NCBI GenBank assembly: GCA_000002445.1
Contig: CM000207.1
Location: 2,816,001-2,880,000 of the forward strand
DNA from: Trypanosoma brucei
Taxonomy: Eukaryota
DNA: 64,000 bases
Direction of reading: 5' to 3'
Under the pieces are notes generated by a model, which saw only the letters and a list, made by a program, of their open reading frames with translations, was not told the origin of the DNA and made no database searches. Of the stretch, positions 2,844 to 46,523 are shown piece by piece (position 1 is the first letter of the stretch; every line of letters begins with the position of its first letter). A program made the translations under genes and the position numbers.

Positions 2844-4388
2844 ATGCAACGAATTCTCCTAGCAGCGATGTGTCTGGTTTTCTGGCACAGCAACAACGCG
2901 GAGGGCAACGGACCAGCGATAAAACAAGCGGAATATTTAAAGGTCTGCAAACTAGCACAAAGCTTGAGAAAAATGCCTGGAGCAGCAAAATTCAAATTAG
3001 GACAGCGGCAGAGAGCAGCTAAAGAGATGTCGAAGGCGATTTTAAAACTAAGAGTCGCAGAAGCAGCAACACTCGAGCGCAATGCATCGATCACATATGG
3101 AGCAATGGCAAATGCTATTAGCAACGCGATGCAAGCCCACCTTGACAATGACGATCAGAGCTCTGCAGCAGCCATAGACGCAGCGACGGCAGCGGCGGCT
3201 GCAGCCGGACGCATAGCTGAGATGGCGGAACTTCTAACAAAAGCAGCAAAAGGCGGGAGTAACACGGGCCACTGCATTGCCGCAACTAGCGGCAGCACAA
3301 ACATAGCAAACGATGCAGGCTATACAGACGGCTGCTATATGAATGAATATACAAGCGCAGCAGCAGACTACAACTTTGAAGACGGCGCGCTTACTGCGAC
3401 GGGCTTTAATGACCTAAATGATGCGGACGCTAAGGACAGCACGGCCACGGCTAGATGCATACTAACACAGCGAGGCGCCGTACCAGCAGCAACAGACGTC
3501 TTCCAAAGCGATGGCCCACACGCAGTGGCGGCCGCAACAATAGTAATAAACGCCAACAACGGTAACCCAAGCATCAAACTGGCCAATGCTCAGGACAACA
3601 TAGCGAAGGCGTGGCAGGTAACAGGCGACGGCGACAGCGGTCTAAAGAAACTCTACAAAGAAGCAGTCAAACTGCGACAGATAACGGCTCCACCTAACAC
3701 GGGAACGGCCGACGACATAATAAAAGCAACCGTTGACCCGGCCGAAATAAAAAAATATATAGCAGCGGCGCTGCGAGCAACAAACTCAAAACTAAACAAC
3801 GATAAAGCAGAAACAGAAGCTGAAGCACTTGCAAATAATGTGTTTACAATGGACAGTGCTAAAACGGACAAAGTATTCAATACAATACAAAAAATAAACA
3901 CAGTCAAGGTAGAAGCAGAACAAATCAAGCCTTTACGACTTGAAGCGCTAACAGACGAAGTAGATCTGCTCAACGCACTCAGTTACCACACCGCTACCAA
4001 CAGAAACAAGATGTCAGCAAAAGCACCCGCTTGCCCTGAACAGGATAAAACTGAAGAAGTGTCAGCAGATAAAAAGATCAAAGAATGCAGTGGCAAAAAA
4101 GGAGATGAATGCAAAGGAGAATGCGAACTGGTAGAGGGAATTTGTAAACCGGCAAACAAAGAAGAGGAAGAAAACAAAGAAAAAGATGGGAAAGCAGCTT
4201 CAACTTGTGCAGGAAAAAAACAAGGGGAATGCGAGAAAGAAAATGGTTGCAAATGGGATGGAAAAGAATGCAAAGATTCCTCTATACTAGTAAACAAGAA
4301 ATTCGCCCTCAGCATGGTTTATGCTGCATTTGTGGCCTTTCTGTTTTACAACTTTAAAACTTACAGGAGTTTTTGTTTAGTTTTGTGA
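2844..4388 (+). CDS. VSG: Variant surface glycoprotein, apparently intact (514 aa). Signal peptide MQRILLAAMCLVFWHSNNAEG, C-terminal domain with CKWDGKECKDSSILVNKKFALSMVYAAFVAFLF, then a 13-aa extension (YNFKTYRSFCLVL).
   Basis: Single uninterrupted ORF with an N-terminal signal peptide and an Ala-rich N-domain. Cys spacing CSGKKGDECKGECE…CAGKKQGECEKENGCKWDGKEC matches the KDSS-type GPI signal. The 70-bp repeat lies 1.6 kb upstream and the 16-mer lies downstream. Confidence 0.85.
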   Translation: MQRILLAAMCLVFWHSNNAEGNGPAIKQAEYLKVCKLAQSLRKMPGAAKFKLGQRQRAAKEMSKAILKLRVAEAATLERNASITYGAMANAISNAMQAHLDNDDQSSAAAIDAATAAAAAAGRIAEMAELLTKAAKGGSNTGHCIAATSGSTNIANDAGYTDGCYMNEYTSAAADYNFEDGALTATGFNDLNDADAKDSTATARCILTQRGAVPAATDVFQSDGPHAVAAATIVINANNGNPSIKLANAQDNIAKAWQVTGDGDSGLKKLYKEAVKLRQITAPPNTGTADDIIKATVDPAEIKKYIAAALRATNSKLNNDKAETEAEALANNVFTMDSAKTDKVFNTIQKINTVKVEAEQIKPLRLEALTDEVDLLNALSYHTATNRNKMSAKAPACPEQDKTEEVSADKKIKECSGKKGDECKGECELVEGICKPANKEEEENKEKDGKAASTCAGKKQGECEKENGCKWDGKECKDSSILVNKKFALSMVYAAFVAFLFYNFKTYRSFCLVL

Positions 4389-6085: not shown

Positions 6086-6629
6086 CATTCTTAGAAGCTT
6101 TAAGTGTCTAATAAATCTAAAAACAAGCTTCTCACGACCAAAAAAAAACAATACTAAATAATAGCCGGTCAGCAAAAACAAGTATCAACACAAAAAACGA
6201 AGCACACCACACGCATGGTTCTAAAGAAATACCTTCGTTAAGTGCGGAAGCGGAAAAGGTTGCTCGTTTGCAGCACAATACACAGACAGCGTTGCTATGC
6301 TGCATATACAGAAGCCACCAGCATCTGCGCAGATTCCCTCACTTCTATTTTATTGATCCTTCATGAAAAACTATGTTTCCAACAACAGAAATAAAGAACG
6401 ACTATAAAAAACTGGGTATAACAACAAGCGTCCGCACCAAATGCGCAAAATATACTTTTGACTGCCCAATGAAGGCGTGCCGAAGCTTCCGATGATAGCG
6501 ACCACCAATAGCTTAGTGTTTTGTGATAGCATTAAAACAATGAAAAATTCAATAACAGGCATATCATTTACTTACAAACACTAGAGACGCTTTCTTTAAG
6601 TTTACCTCAGCAGGCAAGTAACTGAAGAC

Positions 6630-8163
6630 ATGGTTAATTTCATACTGGCGCTAGCTTTGTCGTTACGCCGTAGTATGTTTCGCTGCGAGGCCGCACGAGC
6701 GGACGGCATCAACGTGGCGGATTTTGCAACACTGTGTGTTCTTGAACGGCAGTCATCCGGCAAAATCAGCGAAGCATATCCAAAAATAGCGGTTCCAAGC
6801 ACAGTAATCAACGAAATATGAGAAATTGTAGCGGCAACGACAAATGCGAAAAATATCACCATCGTACCTGCAGACGACATTGCGTACGAGGCGGCCGCCG
6901 CTCAAAAAACATGCAGCCAACAAAAAGACAAACATAATGAGTGCAAAGGACACTGGGAAAAATGACAAGCCATAAAAAAGCGGCGAAACAAGGTCAAGAT
7001 TTAAAATTCAAGTCACTATCAGAAAGCCAACGTAGGAACCAAGCAGCATCAGTGTTCAGCGCGACACTACAAGACATCGAAGCGGATGCAACAGAAACCT
7101 ACAACCAACTCAATCAGCAATCCGATAACGTCGCGAAGCCGACAAATCCCTAGCGACGCAAAAGCTAACTAAAGCCAAGTTTGGCGGTAGCAAAACCAAG
7201 GAAGAAGGCGGACCAAATACTGGCCACGGCAAGGACAGTGACAAAGCTGGCAGCTGCAAACATTCACACGCAGGCATGAGTTTGGTACACGACTTCTTTT
7301 GTTTGTGTGTAACAGATTCGACAAGCCAAGCTGCCAAGCCGTGTGGCTTCACAGTTGCTAGCTGAAACGGTGGCAGCTGGCAAGACTGCACCGAAAACAA
7401 CAAGCATTCAGCCTGGAAAACAGTGAAAACCAAATGCAAGGAAATATATAAGGGCAAAACCACAGCACAGCACATAAGGGCAGGGCTCGCGGCGTTCGCA
7501 AGACTACTACAAATGGATGCGACGGCCGATATAGAATCCGCAGCTGCAGTCTACCTTAGAGCCAGCGGCAGCAAAAAATGCACAGCACATGCGACAAAGC
7601 ATTGCGTAGACTACAGCGCCGCCTTCAGAGACACGACCCGGACAGCCGGCATATACTGGTACAAACAACTCGAGGTAGCTGCAGACGACCTAGACACACT
7701 CGCAAGAGAACAAGCAGACATCAAAAACAAAATAAGAAGTCTAGACAGTCTTAACATTCAAGTCCGTCAGATGTACAAGATTATCGCGAACGCACCAGCA
7801 GCAACTGCAGTAGCGCCCTCAACAAGCACCAATTCACAAAACGCCAACACAGAAGAGAAACAAAAAACGTGCGAAATATTAGAAAAAAAGTGATTACAAA
7901 AACAATAGGGAGTGAAAATGGGACAGTGTTGATAAATACGAAGGAGACCACTGTAAATTAAATGAAACAAAAGTAGAACAAGCAAACAAAGCAACAACAG
8001 GAACCGAGCGAACCCAAACTGGTAAAAGGTGCTCCGAAAAGTAGGGAAGTGTATACTTCGAGATTGCAAATGGGAAGGCGAAACTTGTAAGGATTCCAGT
8101 TTACTCGTCAATAAGAAATTGAATTTCATTGCTTCTGCCTCTATAAGTTTGGGAACATTTTAA
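6630..8163 (+). pseudogene. VSG: VSG pseudogene (B-type-like). Signal peptide MVNFILALALSL…, HCVDYS motif and C-terminal KCKWEGETCKDSSLLVNKKLNFIASASISLGTF*. Several frameshifts.
   Basis: ORFs 6630..6821, 6941..7153 and 7423..7893 fall in two frames, with stop-containing VSG-like translation between them. The C-terminal GPI tail is in a further frame. Confidence 0.8.
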
Positions 8164-8424
8164 CATTCTAAAGTTTTTAAGGATTTTATCACCATTTGTT
8201 GAAGTTTTAGAAAATTCATTTTTCTAAGAATTTGCTATAATTTGACGTGTTCTAACCATTTTTTGATAAAAATGTAAAATTAGTAAAAATTAAAAAAATA
8301 CTAGTAAAATGTACATTATGTAGGTCCATAAATTAAAGTAGTATAGTGATAAATATAAAAACTGACCAGTATTCCTATTTAGTTTGTTTTGTGCGTACTA
8401 TGAATATTAGGCGCAACTTAAAGT

Positions 8425-8595
8425 TATCATAATAACAATAACAATAATAATAATAATGATAATAATAATAGAAGAGTGTTGTGAGTGTGTGTATATACGA
8501 ATATTATAATAAGAACAGTAATAATAATAATAATAGTAATAATGATGGGAGAGTGTTGTGAGTGTGTGCATACGAAAATAATATGAAGATTGGTG
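8425..8595 (+). repeat. 70-bp repeats, 2 tandem copies
   Basis: Two units: …ataataatagaagagtgttgtgagtgtgtgtatatacgaatattataataagaac… and …aatgatgggagagtgttgtgagtgtgtgcatacgaaaataatatgaag…. Confidence 0.9.
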
Positions 8596-9854
8596 GTACG
8601 AAACGACCAGTAACCCAGACCAAAGGAAAACGTAGACAGTAACAAGGGTCCAATGGTATTTAGAGGCGTGGTGGCTGTGAAAGGTATCCTAGCAGCGCTA
8701 TGACTTGGCAGTGTGGCAAACTGAGAGTTTTACAATGGCGATATCAAATGGTAGAGAGAATGAGTATAGGGGTTGCTGAGTGGTAAATTTTCTCAAGCTG
8801 TGCAGTCACCTTTGAAAGCAGCTTCAGCCGCCAACATGCATCCAGAAAGAGAGGAAAAAACAGCAAAAGAGTGCTATTGTATCACAAGGTAGTGTAGGGA
8901 CTGCGACGCATAGTATACCCTACACATAGACGGGTTAAAAAAGTTATGAGACTGAACGAATGTTTCTGCGGTTTCTATAATACTGCACGCAAAGGTGTGG
9001 AAAGACAATTTAAATGTAAATTTTAGTACGCGGTGGCCAAAGAGACTTAAAAGAGTATATTACAGTCTACGTTCGTGCGTAGGACCTTGCAAAACTGAGT
9101 ATTTCTCTTATTAATTTTAACCTTCTTACAGCTTTCTGTTTTGTAAAATATAGAAAGAGACAAAAATAGTAAAGAGGAAAAAAAGAAACAAAAGCATTTA
9201 TATATCACATCCTGCGAAAATAAATAACAAAGAAGTGCAAGGGATTGCCAGCAGACGTTAGCGTAACGGTTAGCTAGGTACTAAGAGCGTGAAGAAAGAT
9301 CCACGTCAACTATCGCCCATTTCAGCGGTTAGAGCGGAGCCAAAAACAAGGAACTTTTGATAAAAATACAGGACAAGCAACAGCCAAGAGGTGGATACAG
9401 CAGGCAGAAATAAGAAAGTACAGGCAAAAGTGTGCTTATCGTAGCAACCCACAAAAATTGACGAGACTATTATAACGATATTTGTTTATGAAACTATGAT
9501 GTAACAAAGAAGCGGTAAGAAACGATTTAGAAGGCAATGGCTGACAAGAAATGTAGCACAAAAACTCTAAAACTACTTTAACTAGCACAGCTTGTATAAT
9601 AAAGAAGCCAAGACGACATATTTTAGGAACAAACAAGTCGGGAAAGAAAATCAAGGGGGGTGTTCGGTAATTTTTCGCGCTCTGATGCCTTACAATTTTA
9701 TAAATGGCACTTCTTTTTCCCATCCCGTTCACATCCTTAAACTCAACCTAACAAAGCAAACCGGCCTGTCACATAGGCACAAAAATTGGAAACTTAACGG
9801 AACAGGGACGGCAATTCGTAGCCAAAAGTACCAAGCGGCATATCAGCCAAGCCG

Positions 9855-11390
9855 TTGGCAGCAGAAACAATGCTACAGCCGCAACAGCAACACTGGAGGT
9901 CCACACTAATAGTGCATGCGCTCATTCTTTTAATTGCAATCTGTGGTAGCGCGAAGAGCGCTTCTGACCCCAGCAAGGTCTCAACCTTTTGCACAGAAAC
10001 ATGGTACGTCAATAAGCTGATAAAGAATCTGAGGACTACAATGGAAGACTCACATCAGCTCGTGCCGTCGAAAAGGCCAGTCAAAATGTCAAACTGTTTC
10101 AGCTTGCGGCGAACAGACACGCCGATGACAAAAAGGGAAATGGGTACGCGGCGCTAGCGGTGATAGCGGAAGTTGACAATCAAAAAGTAGCGCAACAAGC
10201 GGTACTTTTTGAACAGGCACATTTCGATGCGCTTCATAAGCTAGCGCACAGAGCAGGGGCGGCTGCGCTAAGCATTGCAATTTCAACCACGACAAAAGCA
10301 CAAATAACCGGCAAGGGCACAGTCGAAGAAATCGGGGGGAAGACAATACTAGCAGAAACGGAACCCAAGCACTGCAAAGTCACACAGGAGATAACTCTAG
10401 CAACAAAGCTAAACTGCTAAGAACAAAAAACGAACCAGGTGGACGCAACAAAAGAGGCGGACAAAACCGCCACATGGGACAAAATATTATTGCGGCAACG
10501 ATCCGAGTTAACGAAGATAGCGGTCGACACCCGGATATTAGTGAAAGGCGCAGGAGCGGACATAGGGGGAAACCCAGGGGCACTAAGCAACGAGCCAGGC
10601 TGCAGCGATAACTCGGGACATACAACAATAGCTGCGGCCATAAACGCCGTAGTAGCAAGCGTCAAGAGCTTTGCGGCCACATTCAAAGCAACGCCAATAA
10701 ACTTACCAGCAACAGGAGAAGGAAGGGAGGCACCACAGGCGCCCAATGATGGAGGCGACGAAATCGAGCTACTAGTTCCAGACGAAGAGTTAGAAAAAGC
10801 CTTGAAAACAGCGTTTAAGCAACCCATACCCGTTGCAACCGACATTTCAACCCTAAAAACTACACAAGTGCTCAGCAACCCCGCTGTACAAGCGTTTGCT
10901 AAAGCATTAGCCGCCAAAAATAAGGGTAAAGCAACTGCTTCTTTATCCGACGAAGATGACGCAGCAGTTGTGTTTGGAGGCAAAAAGGTTGACATTCAAA
11001 CGACGCACATCAAGCATCTGGAATATGACGAGATTACCATCAGTAGTGAACCTGAAATTAAAGGCACCACTAAGAAATTAAGCGAAAACAACTTTGCCGA
11101 TGCAATGGGTTATTTCAATAGCCAAAACATGAAAAAACATACAGCCAATACAGCAGAAACAAAGCCTGAAGTAGGGGGAGAAAAAGCAAATACAGCAGAC
11201 AAAGCCGAAGAAAAGAAAGACGAGGATAATAAAGGAACCGCAGCTGATTGTAAAGCCACTGAGGAGGGTAAATGTGTCAAAGAGAAATGCACTTGTAATA
11301 AAGAAAAGAAAGGTGCAAAGACAAGGAGGGAGATGCTATTATTTCCGCTGTGATTAAGGTCTCTCTTTTGCTGGCAGTTTTGCTTATAGG
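9855..11390 (+). pseudogene. VSG: VSG pseudogene. Signal peptide …LIVHALILLIAICGSAKS, B-type N-domain (TWDKILL, HFDALHKLAH). The C-terminus is degenerate, with the tail frameshifted.
   Basis: ORFs 9855..10157, 10160..10420 and 10439..11353 are separated by a frameshift and an in-frame stop. The Cys/Lys-rich C-terminal region is followed by an out-of-frame hydrophobic tail and a 16-mer. Confidence 0.8.
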
Positions 11391-11466
11391 ATGAGAAGTT
11401 TAAGGATTTTAGACCAATTTTTTTAGATTTGTGAAACTCATAATTTTTTTCTATTTTGAGAGAATT

Positions 11467-11482
11467 TGATATATTTAACACT
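11467..11482 (+). promoter_or_regulatory. VSG 3'UTR 16-mer (TGATATATTTAACAC)
   Basis: Consensus match about 100 nt after the degenerate VSG C-terminus. Confidence 0.65.
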
Positions 11483-11659
11483 TTTTGTCAACCATTTGCG
11501 AAATGAAAATTTTTTGAGGATTTAGTAAAATGTGCATGACAGTGTCCTATGGGAGTAAGTTAATAGCACGATAGGGTATGGCAAGTAAGTTTCATTGTGA
11601 AACTTCATTAATTGATTTTTTTTGTCTATTTTATGGATACTAATAGTTAGGGTTGTGAT

Positions 11660-11720
11660 GGCCATATTAAGAATGACAGGAGAGTGTTGTGGGTGTGTAT
11701 ATACGAATATTATAATGACA
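11660..11720 (+). repeat. 70-bp repeat (1 copy) with no cognate downstream VSG
   Basis: Sequence gaatgacaggagagtgttgtgggtgtgtatatacgaatattataatgacag. The next 1.1 kb has no VSG-like coding sequence and then runs into the ingi. Confidence 0.8.
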
Positions 11721-13663
11721 GTTGTGCGGAACGAAATTTGAAGATGACGTGAAGCACTTAAAACAATGGCGCGGCTGCAGTGGCAGTAAATGAGTAATTA
11801 AGAGTGAATGTACGAGAGAAAAAAGTTACGTTATAACAGATAATGAACTCTTGGAAACAGCTTATGTGCAGTATCCAGCGGATATCCAAAGAATAGTATC
11901 ATTATTATACGGAAAAAGCAGAAGATATAAAGTATAAGTACACGGGGGCCATTGAACGGGACAACTGTAATTACTTCGTTACTCGATGAAAAAGAAGTAT
12001 CAGAATCTGGTTACCAAGGCATAGATAAAACAGGCGCTAAAAGAATAAGGGAGCGCATATATTAAGCGATGGAGGAACTTAATAAAGTGGAGAAGAACGA
12101 TGATAATACCCCCCCCCATTTACGTATTGGTATACTTTTCAGACACAAAGGCATTTTTAAAAAAAGGATATCCATATAAAAGTGTTTGATGATGCGCAAC
12201 TAACGAAGCTCATTAACAGAGATAAATCAGATAGGAAGGTACATGTGGATCCCATGATACCAGATATAAAGCGCTATATGTTTAAAAACGACAGAAATGC
12301 AGAAGAAACAAACAGATGTGTAGACTATTCCTTGAAAAACAGAGACACTAGTTGTTTATTTCTTCAGCAAGTAATAGAGATTTGCCGTCAGGTGGAAGAA
12401 AAAATGAACATAAGATTAGAATTTTATGGCGTAGATATGTGTGTTGTATTTGGAATATATTGAGAAGTGAATTAGATGTATAACTTAGATACAAAAACCA
12501 ACAGGAATACAATGACACGAATAAGAGATAAAACCCATAATCTTCGGCTAAACGAACTGTTTTGACAAACTTCCCATACCGGATGAGCCAATAGAAATCG
12601 ACATAAAAACGGGATTTATAAAGTAACATAGACTCATATAGTCGAAACAAGAGCAGAACGTAAAAACTTCTGAGTCCAATTGAAGCATATTAGAACAAAG
12701 AAGAGTCTTTCACAAGAACATACTAAGGATATAGTTAATAGAAGTGGTGTGGATATGAAAAATCCCCATGAAGCTGTAAGAGCCGAAGCCAACTACATAC
12801 AGCAAGTAGCCGTAACAGAGGTGAGCAGCCACAAGCATGCGTAACAATAGATATAAAATTTTCTGCCCAGAAAAAAAAGACTAAGAATTATTTTTTTTAT
12901 ATTTTCTTCGTGCCTTCGTGAGAGTTTCCCCCCACTGGCGCGGCCATCAGCCATCACCGTAGAGCCCTGAAATGCTATCGGTCTGGCGACTGTGGCAGAG
13001 TCTCCATTTTTTTTTCAGCCTAACACACTCTCTATAATTTTTGTTGTAGCTCCGCAGTTGAACGGAATACAGCAGATGGGGCGAGAAGCCACCCAACCCG
13101 GACTCTCCCAAAGATGTCAATTAGCAATCCTTTTGTTTTGATTTTTGTTATTCGTTTATTATTCTCTCCCCTCTTTCTGTTTCTGTTGCTTGTTGATTGC
13201 ATACCCCCTCTGTCTCTGAGGGTGTCTGGACTATTCCTGCGTCCGGTGCTTTTCCTGCTAGCTCCACACTCGGCAATAAGGGGGGAAGTTGCAGAATGGA
13301 GAGTGGGTTGTATGACTGATACATTAGGGGAGGACTTCACCTGCGGCCGGCTTCGTTCAACCGCAATGAGAAACTGCGCCAGCCTTTTAGAGAAACATAT
13401 ATCCTGCACACATACACACCTTCCACCGCAAACCTAACACGTAACTCCTTCAAATCGGGACAGTTCATCAGGTGCAGCGCCGTTTCTTCGCAGTCGCCGC
13501 GTTGGCTGGTAACAGCGCGCTCTACCTTCATATTGTGCATCTTATTTTGATGTAAGGTGAGGCCAGTTCTGCTAGCACACTGCCTTCAGCATGTCGATCA
13601 CACCAACATGGATGTGTTTGTATGTGGGGAATCAGTGACACACAATTTTGTGCTTTTGCTGCA

Positions 13664-14458
13664 TTAAAGCTCGACTCTCTCACCTTTATGGAAAGCCTTA
13701 CAGTGTCGGATGGGAGAGTCCCTGCAACTGAGCACTTTTTGGCACACACCACACTGCTCCTCGCCTTTCCCCGGGACGTCAACGTTTCCTTCACGGGCAC
13801 GCTTACGAGGGAATTGCACCACCACCACGGTACCGTCCTCCGTCACTATGCTCTTATGTTTGAATTTCTTGTGTAGTGACCGGGAAGAGCGTGTACCGAA
13901 GCTCGCCTCACACAGGTCACATTGAAACGGCAGCTTCCGTGTATCCTGAGAGGCTGGCGCTGCTGGAGCGCTACCATCTCTTTGCAATGAGTCCTCGTTC
14001 TCCCGCCCCCTTTTCACGCGGCAACTACCGCTGCCTATGCCATGTATTGTTCTAAGGTGGTGTAATAGTCGGCCTGGCACTGCGAATTTGGAGGCACAGA
14101 GGGTACAATGAAGCACCTGCGGTCTCATCGAGACTCGTGTGCTCGATGGTAGAGGAACGATCGCCACCACTGGAGGGGGCTCCGGGGAGATGTCCACTGC
14201 AGGTGTTGCATCGCCGTATTTGATCCTCCGGAAGGCATAAGCTCGCACAAAGCCATGTTTGTTTACCCTGTGCGTTACAGCACTCGAGTGGGATTGGTAT
14301 TTGGCATCACATTCCGTACATTTGGTCGGTTCGGAGGTTCTCTGAAGAGTGCGTGTCGCAACAGTTGGGGCTGTTTGTATTGTTGGCCCTATCGCTGCAT
14401 GTTGTGGGTTGCACCATCGGCACTGTGGAGGCACACTCGGGTTGATCTTTCGCAACAT
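13664..14458 (-). pseudogene. ingi C-terminal C2H2 zinc-finger segment (264 aa ORF)
   Basis: Repeated CxxC…HxxxH units (CTECDAKYQSHSSAVTHRVNKHG, CTLCASKFAVPGRLLHHLRTIHG, CDLCEASFGTRSSRSLHKKFKH, CGVCQKVLSCRDSPIRHCKAFH). Confidence 0.75.
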
Positions 14459-14520
14459 CCATCCATAGTGTCTTGAAGACCCAACCCGAAAGCGTGCCAG
14501 TGCCGTTTCTTCTTCCCTCG

Positions 14521-16866
14521 TCAGTTCTTCCTTATGTTTTGTTGGAAAGTGGTTGCCGTGATACCAAACCTATGAGTGTTATCATGGACTTCTTCCGACC
14601 TAAGCACTCGCTTCGCATAAGCAATGATGTCGGGGATCCATGTATCTCGCAACTGTGGTAAATCTGCGGACTTTTTGGCCATTTCATCACAAACCTCATT
14701 CCGTTTCACGCCACAATGGCCAAACACAAATTGCAGTTGGATACGCACCTTCCTTCTCTGAACTTGAAGCAGAAGCCTCCATAGTCGTCTTATAATTGGG
14801 TCAGTTACGGCTAGGGGGCCTGTCTGCAGTGCTGTTAACATTGACAGCGAGTCAGAGAAGATGGACAACCTGCTCGGTGTGCTTCTGTATGCCGGAAGCC
14901 ATTTCAGCAGCCGTTGCAGTCCTATCTCTAATGCTACGCATTCCGCTCTGTAACTGCATGAGAGTTCCCCTGCTCCGGTCTTGGGTGCACAAATCAGCGT
15001 GTTTTTTCTATAGAGCAGGGCAGCTGCCCCGGACTTCTCACCGAGGGACACGGATCCATCAGTACACAATTCGTAGTGCTCTCGCCGCGGTGGCTCCTTC
15101 CCCCTCCGTGCAAAATGCCGTTCAATCCACTTTTCGGAAACCTCCCTTTTGACATCGTCAGGGTCATCAGCGCACACAGGCTTTATCTGCGTGTGAAATA
15201 TCGGTCGGCAGCTGTGGCGGAGCGTCGCTGTCTCTAGTGGGTGCTCGCGTGGCTCAATGCGGAGGTGGGGATAAGACCGCATGATGCGGGAATGTAAGAC
15301 TCTGACTGGATGTTTGCTGTGGTATACTTCCTCATCACTGCGCCGCAAACATCCGCCTCGTGACTCACACATCAGCATGAATTTTATGCTGTGCACAAGA
15401 GTGGCCGTCTTGAGTGGCAGGAGGTTTGCTTCCAGCAGAGAGTTCTCTTTGCGCGTCCCATGCGGTATGCCGGCTATGATGCGACTGGCTTTGTGTTGTG
15501 CTGCTGCAAGGAGGTCTAGACTTCGTTTTGAAGCGTCCCAGTACCATACCTCAATGCCATACATGGTGTGTGCCTGTACGAGTGCTAGATAAAAAGCTCT
15601 CAGTACTTGTCGTCTTGGCCTCCATGTAGAAGCTGAGATGGATGCTATCTGCAGTAGTCTCAAGTCCATCTTGCGTCTCGTTTCGGCCGCATGTGTTGCC
15701 ATCCCTTGCAGACACTGGAATGTTACTCCTAGAAGCTTCGGTGTCCTGTCAGCTCCTATTCTTTCGCCGTCTAGTTGTAATGTAAGGGGATGGCGCTCTA
15801 TACACCCGAAGAGTGTGCACTTTGTTTTCGCTATATTGACAGACATGAAGTACTCTTGTGACCACTGTAACACCACGTTGAGGCCGCATTGTAGTGTGTG
15901 GTTGATGGCATCCCTCTCTGTGTGTCTCGCAAGTAGCGTTAGGTCGTTTGCAAAGAATCCGTGCTGCAGTAACGGCACTTCTGCAAGGCGCTGGCTCAAC
16001 GAGTTCATGACAATAATGAACATGATTGGGCCAAGGACAGTTCCTTTTGACACTCCTCGCTCAAATGTTCTGCTTCTGGAAAGCCTCTCCTTGAATCTCA
16101 CTCTGCCAGTTCGGTTACTCAGAAATGATACGCACCACTTCACAATGTGGGGTGATACCTTCATTCTGTGCATTTTCCTCGCAATTTTGTCGTGATCTAC
16201 TGTATCGAATGCCTTCTCGTAGTCAACGAATACAGCACCTGTACGATATTGGTGCGTGGGACGGCAGAGGGCAGCGCGGACGTGCAGCAGTTGTTCGAGC
16301 GTTGAGCATCCGGGGCGAAAGCCTGATTGCTGCGGCGTCAGCTGGGACTCAACAGTGTCTCTAAGCCTCGCGGCAATTATGCGCTCCATGACTTTGCAGA
16401 GACAGCTTGTGAGCGTCACAGGCCTGTAAGAATCGAGGTCCTCCGCCTTTTTTCCGGCCTTCAGGATGGGGATGATAACACCAATCTTCCATGCAGGCAG
16501 CACGACTCCCGTTCGTAGGCTCTCATTGAATAGCCTCAGCACAACATTCAGCGCTGTTCTACCGAGATGTTGCAGTGCCTCGTTGTATAGGCAATCAGGT
16601 CCTGCTGCGGATCCACTCGGAAGTAGTTTGATCGATCTCCGTAGTTCAGCCATCGTGATGGGACTGAACTCACTCGCTATCGTCTTTATTGGTGCCGGTG
16701 GGTGTGAGTCGGGTTGCCTTCTTGCGCGGGACGAGTACAGTTTACTGAACCTCTCAGCTTGACGGTAGTCCGTGATGGCCGCGTTATCAACAAGTACAGC
16801 CAGTGTGGTTAGTGGTCGTGGCGCATATACCTTCTTGACAATGTGCCAACTGCAGCGGTCTGACAC
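14521..16866 (-). pseudogene. ingi reverse transcriptase / RNase H segment (781 aa ORF), separated from the other ORF pieces by frameshifts and stops
   Basis: RT motifs present (…FVDYEKAFDTV…, …GVSKGTVLGPIMFIIVM…, …FFANDLTLLA…). RNase H-like …CTDGSVSLGEKSGAAALLY…. Confidence 0.85.
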
Positions 16867-17490
16867 CGCAAGTCTGGAGCATAGTGTGCTTCACCTCTTT
16901 TTTGTGGTACGGTCCAGGATCTGCTTACGCGTGGCTACCAACATTTCCCTTCGGTGGGAGGATCCGCATCCAGCGATCTCTTCATCGAGTTTCGCGAGCT
17001 CAGGTGTCCAATGTGGTGGCGTTGCTCTGCAGCTACGGGGGACGGAGACCTTCGTCGCAATGCGGATGGCGGAGCTCAATTTCTGTTCCAGGGTGTTGAC
17101 ATTCTTCTCTCTACCAATTTTCCTGCAGAGCTCGTCAACCTTGAGATGGAAATTCCTTCAGTTAGCTTTTAGCCATGCGTACATGGGCTTTCGAGGCCGC
17201 GTGCAACTCAGTGCATCTGTGTCGTCTCCAACGATAACGTCGAAAAATATGTGATGGTGATCGCTATCTGGAGAATACAGCGATATCCACGTGTACACTG
17301 TGCAATTCCTTGACAGTGTCACATCAGGGGTGGACTCCCCGTGGTGGCGCGCGTACCTGGTGCACTGACCAGTGTTGCAGACCAGAAACTGGTTGTCAAT
17401 GCACCACTGTGTGAGGGTTTCACCCTTGGTATTTGGTGGGCTCGCGCGATCCCATGCCAACGAGTGTGCGTTAGCATCTGCACCGATGAG

Positions 17491-17916
17491 CTAAGCACTG
17501 TCAGTTGTCAGAAGCGTATCTAGGTCAGTTGCCGTGAAGGTGTGTTTTGGTGGGATGTATGCCGACGTGACAGTCAGCGCCTTTCCACGTGCAAGGTGAA
17601 TTGTTGCATGCACTTGTTCAATGCGACCAATAACGGCCATACAGGTCTCGACTGGTAGGTCTTTCCTCACTAGTATTGATACACCACCTCCTCTGCAGTT
17701 ACGAGCTATTCCGTTATGTTGGTAGCCAGCAACGCTAAAGCAAGCCGCCTCTCCAGGCGTCATTCTTGTCTCACTCAACAGACAAAAGGCGATCCGCTCA
17801 TCAACAAGGGTTTTGTGGAGTGCTAATCTCTTTCCTTGAGATAGCCCGGCGCAGTTCCACTGCATCCCGCGCAACGACGGGCCGGGATTCTCTTCCATGT
17901 CACCGAACAGCAGCAT
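17491..17916 (-). pseudogene. ingi ORF fragment: N-terminal 2A-like peptide (DMEENPGP) followed by an AP-endonuclease-like region
   Basis: Sequence MLLFGDMEENPGPSLRGMQWNCAGL….ILVRKDLPVE… is an N-terminal endonuclease domain of the L1Tc/ingi clade. The D-x-E-x-NPGP motif lies at 17878..17901. Confidence 0.75.
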
Positions 17917-18642
17917 CTTAGTGCGGATGATACTGCTGATGGCACGCTGGCACGTGCCCAGGGACCGACAAATGAAGAACGGTGTCCCAGCAAGACGCTG
18001 CTGATCCCTGTGCTGTATGATGCCGTAGCCGGAGCACAGCAGTGTTCCCCATGAAAGGAACGCTGCTGCCTCTTGGCTTCCCCAGATGATACGGGGTACT
18101 GGACCCTGGCACCACGTTGAGGTGGCCGTAATCGCCAGGTGTTTGGCTTGTCTCTGCCTGTTCCGAGAATTAGTTACCTATGGTGGAGGACGAATTTTTA
18201 GGTGAATTAAGAAAAACCATACCAGCTGTATTTTTTGTGCCAGATTGCCGTGTATCCATGATAGAGTCATGAGTCGAAACTATGAACTTTTCAAAGAATA
18301 TATGAGAGCATATAAACAGTGCGGCGGTTAGTTGCCTTCCACTCCAAATCCTTATTTGCGTCAGTTTCAAAGACTGTATTTCCCCTGTGTATACTCGACT
18401 GTTCCTCTATATCATTTCATCTCCATCATATCCTTGTGTACGATTGTGCACACAATCATAACGTTAGTGTTTGAACCTGGAAAACTTCTATACTCTATCT
18501 TTCTTCTCCTTTTTCCATTTTATTTAGCAATATTCCACATCATCACTTCAAATCCATTATGCATACGATTACTCTCGTTGCACACATACCATTGTCTTAA
18601 CTGCATTTTTTGTGTTTTTCATTCATTTTTATAGTTACTACT

Positions 18643-22499: not shown

Positions 22500-24030
22500 A
22501 TCAAAGCAGCATCCGTACTCATAGAAAATTTCTTATTGAGGAGAAAACAGCCATTTCTGTACTTTTCTCTTTCTTTGTAATCTCCACCCTCTTTTCCCTT
22601 CCTCCATGCACAATTTTTCTCGTCTCCTGTTTTGTCTTTTTCACAAGCGGTCTTATCATTTCCGTGTCTTGCACATCCAGCTGGAGCTGCTCCCTCTTTT
22701 TCTGTCTCTCCTGTTCCTGCTGCTGTGGTTTCTGTTCCTGGTTTAGGCTTGCATTCCTTTTTAGTTTTTTCATATTCGCAAGAATCTGTTGGGCAATGGG
22801 TTTCATTGTTGTTAAAACTTTCACAGACTATCTCCTTTCTGGCGGTGGCCGTTGTCGATTGTACTGGTATTGTTTATGCTGCTGCTTGTCCTTTAGTGTT
22901 TTACTCGTATTCTGCTGCTTTTTAAGCGCTGCCAACTGTTCCTTTAGTCGTATCCGCTTTTGTTTATCTGCTTCGTACAGTTTGTAGGCGCCTGCCGCTT
23001 CTTTTAACTTTTTGATCCATGGCACTTTGTTTAGTCCTCCGTCCGGTCCACTGAAATAGGTGTGGTAGTCAACACAGTTGGCGTCGCTGTCAGTGGAGCT
23101 TACAGAGGTTTCTTTTCCGAGGACGGTTTTTCTATTGAACGGGTCCTGCTGTGCCATTGGTGCGCCTATTTGGGCGATGGCGGCGGATATTTTAGAGTCT
23201 AATTGTTGAACTGGTGCTTTCTCGGGGCATGTGCCGGCAGTCCCTTCTATTCTGTCGTTGGTGCTGTCGCCTTTGGCATATGTGTTGGCGTTCCTTGCTC
23301 CGCAGGCGTTGTCTGTGCCGTCCGCGCAAACACATACTAGGTCATTGCCGATACTCTTGCCGTTTTCTGCGATCGCACAGTCGGTTGCCTTGGTTATTGC
23401 GGTTGCCACCTTTTTGCATGTCTTTGTGGATGCCTCAAATTTGTATTTTGTTTCGGCTCCACACATAGCCTCCTGTAGCGCCGAATTGATTTTTTCTATT
23501 AATCTACGCCGTCCTTTGTAGGAGGTGCTTTTAGCTGTTCATTGATCTGCTGGGAGATGTGAGGTGTTGGATTTATTGCCCGTGCCGCACGCGCCCTCTC
23601 CTCTTTTGATATTGGCCGAGGATTTTCCTTTGCCCAGTTGTTGTCTTTCGCACCTGGTTTTGTGTGTTGTCGCTGTCTTTGCCATTCTTTACATTTTACT
23701 GTCCAATCAAAGTGCTTTTTCTGAGCATCTAGCGTTACCTTCATTTTATCCCACGTTCCTGCTTGTGCTGCAGTGCCAAGCAAGGCGTGTCATTTGTCGT
23801 CTGCTGCACTCATATTATAGTATAGTATATCTATGTAGTCTGTTTCGTCCGGCGGCGTCGTGAAAGCCGAAATGCTGCCGCTCTTGGCTATCTGCCAGAC
23901 GTTGCACAATGCCAGGAAAACATTCTGTGCGTCGCCTGCCGTTCCATGTGCACGCTGTAGCGACTTCGCTGCGATAAGCAATAATATTAATTAAATTCTG
24001 CTTTTTCCCATGTTCAGTGTTGTTAAACAC
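22500..24030 (-). pseudogene. VSG: VSG pseudogene (B-type: …NCVDYHTYFSGPDGG…, …GTWDKM…). C-terminal Cys-rich domain and KDSS-like tail are frameshifted and there is an in-frame stop near the N-terminus.
   Basis: ORFs 23790..23981, 23499..23783, 22828..23466 and 22519..22824 are consecutive VSG segments separated by stops and frameshifts. Confidence 0.75.
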
Positions 24031-27868: not shown

Positions 27869-29233
27869 TTGTTAATGACAAATGAATTGCTTCCTGTGGT
27901 GTTTGCAGTTTTAAATTCATTCTCCGCTTTCACTCCGTCTTCCCAACCTTTAGCTTTGCACTCTCCTTTTTCATCAGTGCCCTTCTATTTGCACCCGCCA
28001 CTGCAGTTCTTTTTCTCCTTACCTTTACATGCCGATGCTGTTTCAATTTGTGGTTTGCATTCAGAGGTACTAGCACTGATCCTCTCGTTTTGCTTTATCG
28101 CAGCTGAAGCCTCTATGAATGCTTCAATCTGCTGCAAATAATTCAGTGTTGAGATACTGTCTAGTTTGCTGTTTGAAGGTCTGCCAGAGTTGGCCTTTGT
28201 TAGGGGCGTTGCCTTCACTCCTTTCCGTATTGGTTCTCCATACGTGCTTGGGTCCTTGCCATAGCTTCTTTCAACCATGTTTTTAATATTGTTCCGTTCT
28301 TGTTGCGGTATCTCCGTCATTGTGTCGTCCCCTTTGGCAATTTTGTAGACTCAGAGGATAAAGTTATCGTCACTTAGTTTGTTATACGGTTCGCAGCTGT
28401 CGGTTGCTGTTGTGTATGTCTTCGGCGCATCTGAGAGTTCGGTGTCGAGTTGGGCTGCTTGATCCGCGATGTTGTCCGAATGGAACACCCATTCCTTTGG
28501 TGTCGCGGTTGGTTTCACCTTTCCTGATGCTTGCTTAGTCGCGTCGGTAGTCGAGTACAGCGTGCCTGACGAAATCCCGGCCCTATTGCCGTTGCTGCTA
28601 CTGCTGCATTGGCCGTTGTATGTTTCGTATACCATTGCTTGAGTTGCAGCTTGAGCTGCTGCTGTGGTGTCAGGCTTGACTACTTCAAGACTAAGTTGCC
28701 AGGTGGTGAGCGCCTTCTCTGCGCCTTGTGGCGATTCGCCGTTTATGTAAGAGTGAATTGTGCATTTGCCTGTGCGTATGCCGGACTCTGTGCCGTCCAC
28801 CTCAATCCTCTTCCTGGCCGCCGACTCTGTGTTCGTTGTGAACGCGTTTGAGTCCGCTTTTGTTTTCAATTTCGCTACCTTATTTAGTGCTGCAGAGTTT
28901 CCCGCCATATGAGCCAGTGCCGCCGCCTTAGAAGCCAGACCGATCACCGTTTGTAATGCTCGGTCGTCATCAGCTTGCACCTTAGGTGTAAGTCGGACAG
29001 AGCTTGAAGAAAGACAGCTTTTTTGCTGTCAGTGGTTAGTAATGCGGCTATTTTTAGTTGTTTTGATTTTTTTACGGTTAACGCTTGGCAGTATTGCCGC
29101 TATCTTGAGTTACTTGACGAGCTCTCCGATGTAGACTTCGTTGTGGTCTTCGATGGAGCAGTTGGGGTTTGGCTCGGCTGCCGCCATGCTTAAGAGTGGC
29201 AAGGCTATAAGAAAAGCTTTGTACATTGTCGAA
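27869..29233 (-). pseudogene. VSG: VSG pseudogene (A-type). Signal peptide MYKAFLIALPLLSMAAAEP, two in-frame stops in the N-terminal 50 codons, and the tail …TNTTGSNSFVINKAPLLLAFL out of frame.
   Basis: ORFs 28351..28980 and 27985..28320 plus the translated upstream region show an N-terminal signal followed by stops. The conserved 3' end matches other VSGs. Confidence 0.8.
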
Positions 29234-37578: not shown

Positions 37579-39157
37579 CTAAAATGCTACAAAACTCATA
37601 AAAGCAGCAGCATTCACCAGAGAAATTTTCTTAATAACGAGAAAACTGGAATCTTTGAAAGCGTTATTTTCCCATTTGCGTTCTGGAACCTTGGTGCATT
37701 ATTCTTGTAGCTTTCCCTTGCAATTCCCTGTTGTTGTTTCGGTTCCTCCAGTTTGAGATTGTGTCACAGTGACACCTTTTACCTTCGCTTTTTCCGCATC
37801 AAATTGCACTTTTTGCTGCTGTCTTCAGAGTCGTCATAACTGCATTGTTTTTCCTTGTTACACTTGTCTTTGTTAGCGTCTCCAATTGCGTTACAATATT
37901 CCTCCTGTGCCTGGTTGGTGGCGACTGGTTGCTTGCAGCTTTCAGTGCTGACCACAGGTTACACCCGTTTTTTAACTCTTGGATTGCTGCGAGTGTGCTT
38001 TTCTGTATCTCTCCCGGGTAAGTCAAAGTGCTTAATTTCACTTGGGTTTTTGATCCTTCCGCAAGCTTGGGGACCATGGTGCTTAGAATTTTCTCCTTTA
38101 GCTTTTGTGCCTGTGTAGTGGTCGCCGGCTCCACACTGTTGATTAGCGCGGTGGCTATTTCATCTTCTGTTGGTTTGGCTGGAGCTCCTTTTGGTTTATT
38201 TATGACTGCAAGTAGTGCTGCCTTGAGGTTTTCAGTCGCTAGGATGCTATCGAGTACTTCGTCGGCTGTCTCGCCGGAGCTGTTGTGCATGTGCTTTTCT
38301 AGTTGTCCTATTTTGTTGTAAAGTTTTGCTGCGGCTGTTGTCGCCTCTGGTGTTGCCCAAGAATTGCCTAGTGCGTTTAGGGCCGGGGTTTGTGCTGTTG
38401 CGCTTGCTGCCGTGTCGTGCGGTTTAATGGTTATGAAACCTTGGGCTATGTTTACGTCGTCGCCGGCTCCGCCGTTTGCCTTCCATAGCTTTGCTGCGTT
38501 GTCGTTTGCACCTACTAGAAAAATACATGTTTGTTGGGCGTTGCCGCTGTGCAGGTCTGTTTTCGCCGACAATGTTTTGAAGCCTTTGTTGTCCATTACA
38601 CTGGCATCGACTGTTGCTCGTGGTTCCGGTGGCTCTAGTATTTCTGCCGGGCAGCCGTACGCCGTTACAGTCGAGGCTAACGTGGCTGTGCTGTCCCCTT
38701 TTTGAACGATGCACTTGCTCGTGCTTCGGTCTTTAGAAGCCTGTCGGAGAATGTCGATTACCTCTGAAATGTGCCCACTGGTTTTGGCGCCGTTAGTGGC
38801 TGCATTTAATGCTATTGGGGCTAGAGTGGCCAGAGCGGTGGCAGCATCGGTCGAACACCTTGAAGCTCTGGCGCCCGCTGCCGCATAAAGCGTTGAGGTG
38901 TTGCTGTCTGTCGCTGCGGCCGCAGCCAGGTTTGCTTTAGCCGCCGCCTCATTTGCCGCCGATACCTGGTTTATTAGGCTTTGTATCTTTGCTAAAGCGA
39001 CACCTTCGATATCCGTTAAAGTTTTGGCTACTTTGCAAACCTTTTTGACGGGCTCTTCGTCAAAGGCGGGGCCACTGGGCGATACAGGCACTGCCAGCAG
39101 CTTTAGGGCCAGCGCGAGCGCCAAGGTACTTGTTGTCCGGCCCGAATTTCGGGGCAT
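37579..39157 (-). pseudogene. VSG: Near-intact VSG. The 452-aa N-domain ORF (signal MPRNSGRTTSTLALALALKLLAVPVSP…) is uninterrupted. The C-terminal domain and GPI tail (…ENNAFKDSSFLVIKKISLVNAAAFMSFVAF*) are in a different frame, with a single apparent frameshift near 37800.
   Basis: ORF 37799..39157 is intact. Translating the minus strand of 37579..37800 gives a Cys-containing C-terminal domain plus a KDSS-type tail in another frame. Confidence 0.8.
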
Positions 39158-41145: not shown

Positions 41146-42459
41146 TTATAGAAGCAAAAATGCATGCACAACAGACTCCTTATGAATGACAAAAGAATTG
41201 CTTCCTGTGGTGTTTGTGTTTTTTGTTTCTGCCATAGATTCAGCTGTGTCTTTTTCACATTTGCTCTCTTTTTCATTATATTTGCACCCATCCTTTTTGT
41301 CACATTGATTTTTGTCATTTATTCCGCCGCGGTCGGTTGTTTCTTTTTTAGAGAGGCATTTCTTGACTACAGTTGGAGCAGCTTTCTTTTGTGCCATGTA
41401 GTAAGCTAGCGCCGAGCCCAGTTTGTCTAGGTCATTTATTTCACTTAATTTTTCACCCTGATCTGCGCTTGTCGCTTGGGGTTCGAGTGTTACACTATTG
41501 ACTGTTGTCCATATCTTGTTATCGAAACTGTTGTCCGCTTTGCCGTACACAGACTTCTTGATTCGTTCGATTTCATCTGTATGTTTCCCTTTCGCTGATT
41601 CCTTAGCTTGCCCGTCTATCGTAGCTAATATCGTCAGTTCGAATGGTTGGTCTTCTACTATTGCTGCTGAAAGTAGGTCATCTGGTTTAAAACTAAGCTT
41701 GGCGATAAGGGTTTCCGTTGTTTTCAGGCCTTTGAGAGCATCTGAAATATAGTCCTTGCTTGGTAGCAGGTCCGCTGGTTTCATTGTTGTTTGTTTATAG
41801 TCATTGTCGTCTGCTGTTTGTCTCTCAAGCTGTTCAAGTTTCTCGTTTAGCATGGCTCCCGTCGACATCCCAAATTGTGTTGCTGTCGTGTCTGCGCCGC
41901 CGCAGTTGTTGTCTGTGAGGCTGGCTCCTACGCAACACCGCAGTCCTGCTGTCTTGGTGCTCGCGTCTGGTTTGTTCCTTTGTAGCACGACAATCGCTAT
42001 TTTCGGCCCGCGTTTCTCTGGTACAATGGGACTGTCTGCCCCTCTTGGTGTTGCTGCCGATTTACCGCAGGCTTCTTTACCGGTGCCAAAGGCGACATCT
42101 TGTATTGGTTTGCCGTTTGCGGTTATTGTTGCCGCTGTGTTGCCGGCGTCGACACTTTCTACTTTCAGTTTGGCTACGTCGGCGATTAAGTGTTGCATCC
42201 CGTGTATTCTGCTGAGACTCGCTATGCTCGCCATTAGTGTCTCTAGCGCTCCGTTTAGGTTTTTTTGAGCCGCCGCTGTGCGTGCTGTTCCTGCTGAAAT
42301 TACCGGGGCAAGCAATTGTGTCAGTCGCCCATTGTTTACTGCCGCGGCTACTGATAGCCGCGCCAATATAATGTTCGCTTTGTGCAGCTGAGACTGCTGT
42401 GCCTGTACGGCGCCTGATATTTTTTGTGTCATTTTCTCAAATTTTTCGCTGCGTCGCAC
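41146..42459 (-). pseudogene. VSG: VSG lacking a signal peptide (N-terminally degenerate). The 437-aa ORF has an A-type N-domain (…LRCCVGASLTDNNCGGADTT…), a Cys-rich C-terminal domain and the tail …NTNTTGSNSFVIHKESVVHAFLLL*.
   Basis: The ORF begins with MRRSEKFEKMTQ…, which has no hydrophobic leader. Upstream translation contains stops, so the 5' end is damaged while the 3' two-thirds is an open VSG. Confidence 0.75.
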
Positions 42460-45059: not shown

Positions 45060-46523
45060 TTAAAAAAGCAAGGCAGCAAATGCAGCAAACACGTGAGGAA
45101 CAGACACTCTCACATTGCTAGAAAATGACTTGTCATCTTTCTTTTCAGTTTCAGGTTTTGGAAAGCATCTTTCACCCTCAGGTTTTTTATCATCAAAATC
45201 ACAACCAGCTTCCTTTTTACAATCTTTGGCTGTTGTATGCTTTTTGCATTCGTCTGCTGATTTGGCTGGTTCTGTTGTTTTATCTGTATTTGTGGGACAT
45301 GATCGATTTGCTTGGTTTTTCTTCTTTTGTTCTTGTTCGTCGACGAATTTTTTGACTGTGTAATAGGTTGCTGCATTTGCGAGCTCTTTGGGGTCATTTA
45401 TTGTCTCAAGCTTATTTTCCCCATTTCCACCTACTGCGGATTTTGGGGGCTTTAGGTCCTTGAGGTCTTTGACTATGGTGTTTTTTACTATTGTTGGCTC
45501 TTTGCCAAATGTTTCTGCCATAAACGAGTCGACTTTCGCTTTCGTTGCAGAGTTGGCATATGTCGCTTTGTCTCCATCTAGAGCTTTGGCTATGGCCTCC
45601 TTCAGTTCCGGTCGCGCCGCTACGTCTTCTGGGCTTGAGACATCTGATATGGCGTCTAATGCCTCTACCGCCGTTTCTAGTTTTCTTATTGCTGTAACCG
45701 CCTTGTTTAAAGTCTTGTCATTGGGTATCGTTGTTGTGCTGGTAATTGCTGGATATGTTTTGCCTGCTGAGCTAGCCAGTCGTGTGGTTGTTACGGCCGC
45801 TGTTTTAAGGAAGTCCCCGCCTTTGATCCCGATAAAGGTTGCTTCGTTTTGACATCCGGTTGATGGCGCCGTCCCAGTGGAGCCGTGTCCCCAAATTGTC
45901 AACAATTCGTTGTGCGTTGTGCCAGGGGTATTTGCACTGACGACGAAAAACTTTAATGTGGGCTCGCCCTGATTGGGTTGGGCTGCTTCTGCGTCGCTTA
46001 CTGGTGACCCGTCGTCATTAAAGCACGCCGCTGTTGCTGCTGGTGCTAGGGTCGGTTTGACTTGGATTATGCCGGGCGTCGTGACGGCTTGAGCCGCCGT
46101 TAGCGTATTGACGTCCTGTACTTGCGCTGACTTAATTTCTGAAACGATTGTTTGCTGGCCTGCTAGCTCGGCCGCGGCCGTGAAGCCTTCTAGAAAATTG
46201 GACGTTTCGGTTTTTATCGTTTCAAGTGCCTTGGCAGTTTCCGAAGCTAGGTTGGCTGCTAATATGCTGGCTGCTGTTGCCGCCCCGCCTGTTTTATAAG
46301 CTGCTACAACGCGTAGTTTGTTTGATTTTTCTAGAGCGCCTTTTGCGTTTGTTAGTCCTCTCTCCAATGCGCTCTCCGCTTGCCGCGTTAAGTGACGCAT
46401 GTAATGACTTGCCCCGCATGTGGTCGTTACTTGAGCTTTGGGATTGTGTAGCAAAGTGGTGCCTTGTGCAGTAATGGCCGCTGCTAGTGCTAGCGCACCG
46501 GTTGCCGCTATCCAGTAATTCAT
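45060..46523 (-). CDS. VSG: Variant surface glycoprotein, apparently intact (487 aa). Signal peptide MNYWIAATGALALAAAITAQG. C-terminal domain …CPTNTDKTTEPAKSADECKKHTTAKDCKKEAGCDFDDKKPEGERC… with tail …SFSSNVRVSVPHVFAAFAALLF*.
   Basis: Single uninterrupted ORF with a signal peptide, a VSG N-domain, a Cys-rich C-terminal domain and a hydrophobic C-terminus. A 16-mer and a 70-bp repeat (47648..47710) flank it. Confidence 0.85.
   Translation of the reverse strand: MNYWIAATGALALAAAITAQGTTLLHNPKAQVTTTCGASHYMRHLTRQAESALERGLTNAKGALEKSNKLRVVAAYKTGGAATAASILAANLASETAKALETIKTETSNFLEGFTAAAELAGQQTIVSEIKSAQVQDVNTLTAAQAVTTPGIIQVKPTLAPAATAACFNDDGSPVSDAEAAQPNQGEPTLKFFVVSANTPGTTHNELLTIWGHGSTGTAPSTGCQNEATFIGIKGGDFLKTAAVTTTRLASSAGKTYPAITSTTTIPNDKTLNKAVTAIRKLETAVEALDAISDVSSPEDVAARPELKEAIAKALDGDKATYANSATKAKVDSFMAETFGKEPTIVKNTIVKDLKDLKPPKSAVGGNGENKLETINDPKELANAATYYTVKKFVDEQEQKKKNQANRSCPTNTDKTTEPAKSADECKKHTTAKDCKKEAGCDFDDKKPEGERCFPKPETEKKDDKSFSSNVRVSVPHVFAAFAALLF

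Follow-up and report, generated by a model that had tools for sequence, protein, structure and literature searches.

A probable relic of the ingi 2A ribosome-skipping sequence in a degenerate Trypanosoma brucei retrotransposon

The ingi copy and its genomic setting

Apart from one retrotransposon, the 64-kb stretch of DNA analyzed here (the window) consists of a VSG array, and it is therefore attributed to a T. brucei-group subtelomere. The features to which the argument refers are as follows.

12891-18140, minus strand: full-length degenerate ingi non-LTR retrotransposon of 5,250 bp, running from its 5' end, (A)CCTGGCG..., to an A8 tail; both ends were read directly
18064-18140, minus strand: Pr77 hallmark, the first 77 nt of the element, with 5 substitutions relative to the consensus (nt 1, 11, 12, 57, and 72) in a base-level alignment to four other copies
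17248-17865, minus strand: APE-type endonuclease domain, beginning 5 residues past NPGP (MQWN...) and broken by the nonsense codon Q214* (Pfam and homologue alignment)
15718-16446, minus strand: reverse transcriptase domain (Pfam RVT_1, E = 3e-40)
14665-15078, minus strand: RNase H domain (Pfam RNase_H, E = 2e-9)
13688-14320, minus strand: four C2H2-type zinc-finger motifs in the C-terminal region (regular expression on translations)
2844-4388, plus strand: A-type VSG ORF
37799-39157, 41146-42459, 45060-46523, and 62021-62728, minus strand: A-type VSG ORFs
22828-23466, minus strand: VSG_B fragment

Among the ORFs of the window, genes to the left of the ingi copy are on the plus strand and those to its right are on the minus strand, the latter including the VSGs from 37799-39157 to 62021-62728, and the AT skew changes sign at approximately 13 to 14 kb. 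The dead ingi element therefore sits where two VSG sub-arrays meet in a convergent strand switch. No second ingi, RIME, or Pr77 copy was found within the 64-kb window.

Read from 18140 to 12891, the element is approximately 95% identical from end to end to three full-length ingi copies of T. b. equiperdum (L001, L002, and L003); it also matches a T. b. gambiense copy (L004) over approximately 4.3 kb, and it is 97.0% identical to the majority consensus of these reference copies. Database proteins related to its N-terminal part carry the names Tbingi, BES15S03c, or endonuclease-reverse transcriptase; those of T. brucei subspecies are 86 to 96% identical, and others belong to T. grayi and T. theileri. 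An ingi element is recognized by a length of approximately 5.2 kb with high nucleotide identity over that whole length, by a Pr77 5' end and a poly(A) 3' end, and by a single long ORF. The copy in the window is 5,250 bp long with 95% pairwise identity, its first 77 nt align with 5 substitutions, and it ends in an A8 tail; the domain order APE, reverse transcriptase, RNase H, and C2H2 is present, but the ORF that encoded these domains is destroyed. Judged on these characters, the element is a degenerate member of the ingi family and not a potentially active one. In L001, a 675-bp ingi/RIME 3'-end fragment (6314-6987, minus strand) is inverted and abuts the 5' end of the full-length ingi (6994-12249, plus strand) in a head-to-head arrangement.

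The 5' sequence of the copy is of the Pr77 type, (A)CCTGGCGAT…GTGCCAGGGTCCAGTACCCCGTATCATC…. In elements of the L1Tc/ingi clade, Pr77 is described as an internal promoter and an HDV-like ribozyme (PMC4035085, PMC1874656); the Pr77 region of this copy matched no Rfam family at an E value of 1 or below, and it is the literature, together with sequence homology, that suggests a ribozyme and promoter role for it. No direct repeat abuts the element. The heptamer TAATTCT directly follows the A-tail (12890-12884) and is found again at 18172-18166, 25 nt before the 5' end of the element; this pair could be a real target-site duplication with 25 extra 5' bases, acquired by 5' transduction or untemplated addition, or alternatively it could have arisen by chance (roughly 0.3 to 1%).

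The extent of the damage becomes apparent when the copy is compared with a consensus ORF, which was built as the majority of four other genomic copies (three full-length and one partial) that are themselves degenerate. Relative to this consensus, the start codon has been lost and the frame carries six nonsense codons and two or three frameshifts. The lesions downstream of the start codon are listed here.

17491-17493, minus strand: nonsense codon Q214* (CAG>TAG)
17158-17160, minus strand: nonsense codon W325* (TGG>TGA)
16891-16893, minus strand: nonsense codon W414* (TGG>TGA)
14555-14557, minus strand: 1-nt deletion (frameshift) between the 781-aa and 264-aa ORFs; the base is present in 4 of 4 reference copies
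13586-13666, minus strand: nonsense codons K1490* (13664-13666), C1512* (13598-13600), and G1516* (13586-13588)
13168-13414, minus strand: two more indels, +2 near 13414 (common to L001) and -1 near 13168

The polarity of the +2 and the last -1 indels is less certain because only three reference copies cover that part, the last ~1 kb of the consensus. Two Pfam matches to the endonuclease, Exo_endo_phos (17557-17865) and Exo_endo_phos_2 (17248-17454), fell under the curated cut-offs because the APE domain is split, and the fifth C2H2 finger of the consensus is gone from this copy through C1512*.

The preliminary description of this sequence had reported ORFs of 141, 781, and 264 aa and concluded that the element is incompetent for retrotransposition. 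All three ORFs were found on the minus strand, the 781-aa ORF (14521-16866) and the 264-aa ORF (13664-14458) lying downstream of the 141-aa ORF (17491-17916), and the conclusion stands: from the lesions in its ORF, the element is judged unable to encode its own retrotransposition proteins. The statement that the ORF is broken into at least three pieces, however, understated the damage, which extends to the lost start, the six nonsense codons, and the two or three frameshifts. A count of frameshifts against the intact ORF had been proposed; two or three were found, but the 141-aa and 781-aa pieces are separated by nonsense mutations instead. The ORFs of 141, 100, 62, and 781 aa all lie in one frame that is split by point nonsense mutations and not by frameshifts.

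The NPGP motif, its reading frame, and the lost start codon

The feature of interest is a D-x-E-x-NPGP motif at the head of the 141-aa ORF. Its surroundings in the element are as follows, with residues numbered on the consensus ORF.

18130-18132, minus strand: lost initiation codon, consensus ATG (Met1 of MPATSTWCQGPVPRI...) changed to ATT, with the next codon changed from CCG to ACG; element nt 9 to 11, inside Pr77
17881-18132, minus strand: coding region of the 84-residue leader (residues 1 to 84) that the 2A would release in an intact element (consensus ORF reconstruction)
17878-17937, minus strand: 2A relic of 20 residues, SSIIRTKMLLFGDMEENPGP (residues 66 to 85; the skipped bond would be Gly84/Pro85); the T. 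brucei-group consensus is SSIIRTKMLLSGDVEENPGP
17878-17916, minus strand: the 13 codons first reported, equivalent to Met73-Pro85 of the intact ORF
17898-17906, minus strand: private substitutions in the 2A, namely, TCC>TTC at 17906 (S76F, position 10) and GAT GTG>GAC ATG at 17899/17898 (synonymous at D78; V79M, position 13)

The preliminary description had assigned a D-x-E-x-NPGP motif to the 13 codons at 17878-17916, and this proved right once the strand, which had not been given, was supplied: the peptide MLLFGDMEENPGP is encoded by the 39 bases from 17916 to 17878 on the minus strand, where it opens the ATG-delimited 141-aa ORF, and the plus-strand translation is meaningless. The motif ends in the N-P-G-P that closes class A 2A sequences (AAT CCC GGC CCG, 17889-17878, minus strand) and has both Asp12 and Glu14 (G-D-M-E-E-NPGP); at position 13, where class A 2As have Val or Ile, it has Met (GTG>ATG at 17898). 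When the 64-kb window is translated in six frames, the relaxed pattern D-x-E-x-NPGP has a single match, and the strict canonical D[V/I]E.NPGP has none, because the residue after Asp is Met. The earlier statement that the motif is retained is thus borne out for the relaxed pattern, but the copy carries S76F and V79M and does not match the strict D(V/I)ExNPGP.

Chance alone, with no relation to 2A, is an extremely improbable origin for this sequence. Bare NPGP tetrapeptides do arise by chance in non-coding frames of the window, at 28573-28584 on the plus strand and at 38390-38379 on the minus strand (n = 2), where they lack the D-x-E and lie in stop-ridden frames. Against this, D.E.NPGP as a whole is expected 2.2e-4 times per window from the six-frame amino-acid frequencies and was produced in 0 of 300 composition-preserving block shuffles of the window, and the motif corresponds in position and by homology to the 2A found in dozens of related elements and shares the reading frame of the APE domain.

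The position of the motif in the intact protein had to be taken from the consensus: the protein database matches included no intact ingi protein of about 1,657 aa, the longest T. brucei entry having 967 aa. The consensus is one uninterrupted ORF of 1,657 aa that starts MPATSTWCQGPVPRIIGGSQEPAAFLSW…, reads …CQRAISSIIRTKMLLSGDVEENPGP up to Pro85, and enters the APE domain (…SLRGMQWNCAGLSQ…) five residues after NPGP. NPGP occupies residues 82 to 85 of this ORF, in frame, and the Met at which the 141-aa ORF begins is Met73. The preliminary description had itself proposed that an NPGP lying in another frame in intact ingi copies would reveal a chance motif; the frame is the same, and so that refutation fails.

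The N-terminal placement fared differently. The motif had been located at the N terminus, in the first 13 codons of the ORF, whereas the frame of this copy stays open for 88 more codons upstream of Met73 (…ITATSTWCQGPVPRIIWGSQEAAAFLSW…RAISSIIRTKMLLFGDMEENPGP). Relatives begin MPATSTWCQGPVPRI..., 72 residues ahead of Met73, where the window reads ITATSTWCQGPVPRI (ATG>ATT), and there is no other in-frame ATG between 18132 and 17916. Since the frame is open upstream and the authentic ATG is now ATT, the "first 13 codons" are therefore an artifact of a restart at the next in-frame Met. Gene callers are known to restart in this way and thereby to create false N-terminal starts, an artifact described in Odon 2013 (PMC3708506).

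One might still read MLLFGDMEENPGP as a short leader at the very N terminus of the protein, that is, as a retained and potentially functional skipping signal translated from this ATG. The ATG-delimited ORF does begin there and matches D-x-E-x-NPGP, and the database entries for two other ingi copies (P0006 and P0007) begin at the same Met; however, these two entries are truncated gene calls on degenerate copies, while in 17 other T. brucei-group entries, as in the T. grayi and T. theileri ones, the frame continues upstream, in most cases as far as MPATSTW..., and the consensus makes this residue Met73. In addition, the 12-residue chain that would precede the Gly/Pro junction cannot supply the 15 to 19 upstream residues that skipping needs, and Odon 2013, which warns of this very annotation artifact, places the ingi 2A 40 to 80 aa from the N terminus (PMC3708506). 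The alignment largely refutes this short-leader interpretation, which we consider very unlikely.

The 84-residue leader is conserved among T. brucei, T. grayi, and T. theileri proteins. In the window, the open frame carries the homologous upstream context, …SSIIRTKMLLF, but the sole in-frame ATG leaves 12 residues before Gly/Pro; by its sequence, then, the copy has the upstream part of the 2A with no evident way to translate it. Over roughly the first 225 nt of the element (18145-17921), all three minus-strand frames are free of stop codons, and one alternative frame is open for approximately 111 codons in 5 of the 5 copies compared (the window copy and L001 to L004). These stop-free 5' frames could reflect composition, an RNA- or DNA-level constraint on Pr77, or an unrecognized overlapping frame.

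Erosion of the 2A core and its predicted consequences

Based on its frame, position, and homology, we conclude, with a probability of about 0.92, that the motif is a relic of the known 2A (StopGo, or ribosome-skipping) sequence of the T. brucei ingi element, in a copy that no longer encodes its proteins. The 2A of the window copy is identical to the T. brucei consensus SSIIRTKMLLSGDVEENPGP at 18 of 20 residues. Of the 18 T. brucei-group protein entries covering this site, 15 contain the 13-residue consensus, LLSGDVEENPGP, as do 2 of the 4 genomic reference copies and the consensus derived from them; relative to LLSGDVEENPGP, the window copy has S76F and V79M, neither of which is present in any other ingi-clade site examined. 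V79M is part of an adjacent dinucleotide difference, TG>CA (17898-17899), and an ancestral CG, deaminated on one strand or on the other, could account for both states.

A profile search against 1.8 billion representatives yielded relatives with 76 NPGP sites, from which the natural variation at these positions was taken. At position 13, the residue is Val at 58 sites, Ile at 14, Ala at 3, Asn at 1, and Met at none, so that 72 of the 76 sites have Val or Ile. Small residues dominate position 10 (Ser at 42 sites, Cys at 15, Gly at 7, Ala at 6, Arg at 3, and Phe, Ile, and Asp at 1 each). Two of the three copies with Ala at position 13 are otherwise degenerate; the third, P0059 (DAEENPGP), is without other change in the 2A. 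Position 13 is not absolutely fixed, given Ala at 3 of the 76 sites. In other degenerate ingi copies, the 2A core has decayed independently and in different ways, to ENPRP in L002 and to EKNTGP in L003 and P0006, and these varied lesions across dead copies are consistent with neutral erosion of the motif after the death of a copy.

Two further observations were made among the relatives. The ingi-like copies of T. grayi (P0008, P0009, P0018, P0027, P0028, and others) consistently read G-N-V-E-E-NPGP, with Asn for Asp at position 12; from these sequences, the core appears to be non-canonical but fixed in the lineage, and not decayed, and it fits within the "(D/G/C/N)(V/I)ExNPGP expanded core" to which a 2026 preprint refers. 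The protein P0057 (Schistosoma mansoni Smp_186480, on a 13-kb contig and labeled "LOW QUALITY PROTEIN") clusters at 90% identity with the ingi endonuclease of T. brucei, and its N terminus corresponds to the ingi 2A region read in a shifted frame; it is probably T. brucei DNA contaminating the S. mansoni assembly.

In an intact ingi element, as the literature describes it, ribosomes would initiate within Pr77, at an ATG located 9 nt from the 5' end, and make an 84-residue leader ending ...SSIIRTKMLLSGDVEENPG. With the nascent 2A in the exit tunnel, the peptidyl-tRNA(Gly) would be hydrolyzed without a stop codon, and elongation would restart at Pro85 to produce the APE endonuclease/reverse transcriptase/RNase H/zinc-finger protein. 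In the window copy, the motif is predicted to be inert because there is no start codon, because of a damaging substitution, and because of an early stop. Initiation at Met73 would give a nascent chain of only 12 residues before the Gly/Pro junction, too short for 2A, and any translation product would end at Q214*. P2A activity collapses once at least 10 N-terminal residues are deleted; 15 to 19 upstream residues are required for skipping, and a truncated P2A keeps approximately 8% activity (PMC12338488).

V79M, at position 13, may matter even by itself. According to a preprint on saturation mutagenesis of F2A and P2A, which used these viral 2As in mammalian cells and lysates and not trypanosome ribosomes, V13 tolerates Ile only (bioRxiv 10.64898/2026.09.24.754024), and positions 7 to 19 of the FMDV 2A are generally intolerant to change (PMC3326317). 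By analogy, V79M alone is expected to abolish or strongly reduce skipping, and we think it likely that this substitution, taken by itself, inactivates the motif.

It can also be envisioned that the DMEENPGP/Phe10 variant is still an active 2A on trypanosome ribosomes, although the copy is dead in other respects. D12, E14, NPGP, and the upstream Leu-Leu are all intact, Met is hydrophobic and near Ile in size, and substitution tolerance in 2A depends on context, according to the same preprint (bioRxiv 10.64898/2026.09.24.754024); non-canonical cores of the form (D/G/C/N)(V/I)ExNPGP can be active, and the GNVEENPGP of T. grayi is consistent across copies. However, position 13 of F2A and P2A accepted only the beta-branched Ile, Met occurs at 0 of the 76 natural sites, and both substitutions are private to a single copy that has also lost its start codon and acquired six stops, the pattern that marks neutral decay. 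Continued activity therefore seems unlikely to us. If DMEENPGP did work, it would be a naturally occurring case that widens the accepted core, D(V/I)ExNPGP.

Read as a relic, the feature is already known, being the published ingi 2A in a decayed state, and it is nothing new in kind. The ingi/L1Tc 2A has been known and functionally tested since 2006, and the value of the present analysis lies chiefly in correct annotation. The copy illustrates how a false N-terminal 2A arises when ORFs are called on a decayed retrotransposon and the call restarts at the next Met. In addition, with S76F and V79M the copy is a naturally occurring double mutant that could be used beside the consensus, as a control with a predicted loss of function, in trypanosome 2A expression tools.

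Comparison with known 2A systems

Several relatives have in common a Leu-rich stretch, G-D-V/I-E-x-NPGP, 2 to 5 further residues, and then the QWN of the APE domain. The arrangements in four of them are given here.

T. congolense: LLLVSGDVERNPGP
T. vivax: LLLISGDVERNPGP
T. grayi: LLLSGNVEENPGP
L1Tc-type sequence: KLLLSGDIEQNPGP

In T. theileri proteins as well, the 2A lies 2 to 5 residues upstream of QWN. Alignment identifies the motif in the window as homologous to the 2A already known from ingi and L1Tc, and its reading frame is that of the APE domain downstream. The preliminary description had likewise taken it for the 2A of an ingi-clade element, and its homology to the ingi, Tcoingi, Tvingi, and L1Tc-type 2As bears this out; it had also stated that 2A-like leaders are described in the L1Tc/ingi clade, and such leaders are indeed published and shown to be active, as summarized by Odon 2013 (PMC3708506). 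The peptide strings SSIIRTK and GDVEENPGP had no literal match in the literature searched. Recent surveys name Trypanosoma among the main eukaryotic sources of class A 2A peptides: more than 15% of the predicted peptides belong to Excavata, and approximately 90% of those are in Trypanosoma.

The viral class A 2As, such as those of FMDV (F2A) and porcine teschovirus (P2A), with the form D(V/I)ExNPG|P, share with the window copy the core G-D-x-E-x-N-P-G-P and an upstream Leu-rich segment, and their mechanism is presumably that of intact ingi. Their hosts are RNA viruses, whereas here the host is a cellular retrotransposon, and the window copy has Met where Val or Ile is required.

The 2A of the T. 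cruzi element L1Tc (canonical -DIEQNPGP-; via PMC3708506) belongs to the same clade as that of ingi, likewise lies N-terminally, ahead of the APE domain, and shares the LLLSGD-x-E-x-NPGP architecture; an L1Tc-type sequence (P0117, ...QKLLLSGDIEQNPGP) was recovered by the profile search. L1Tc is an element of another species and has Ile at position 13 and Gln at position 15; its natural low-activity variant is N>H (DIEQHPGP) and not V>M (PMC3708506). Both the ingi and L1Tc 2As lie 40 to 80 aa from the N terminus of the ORF, directly upstream of the APE domain (PMC3708506), and both were active in recoding assays (Heras et al. 2006, as related by Odon et al. 2013, PMC3708506); Heras et al., as cited there, suggested that the 2A may also downregulate the downstream product.

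The tested T. brucei ingi 2A (Heras 2006, via PMC3708506) and the window copy are alike in family (95% nucleotide identity), in their position at residues 66 to 85, and in frame. Unlike the tested sequence, as it is described in that secondary source, the window copy carries S76F and V79M, has lost its start codon, and lies in a broken ORF, and it is not expected to be translated or active.
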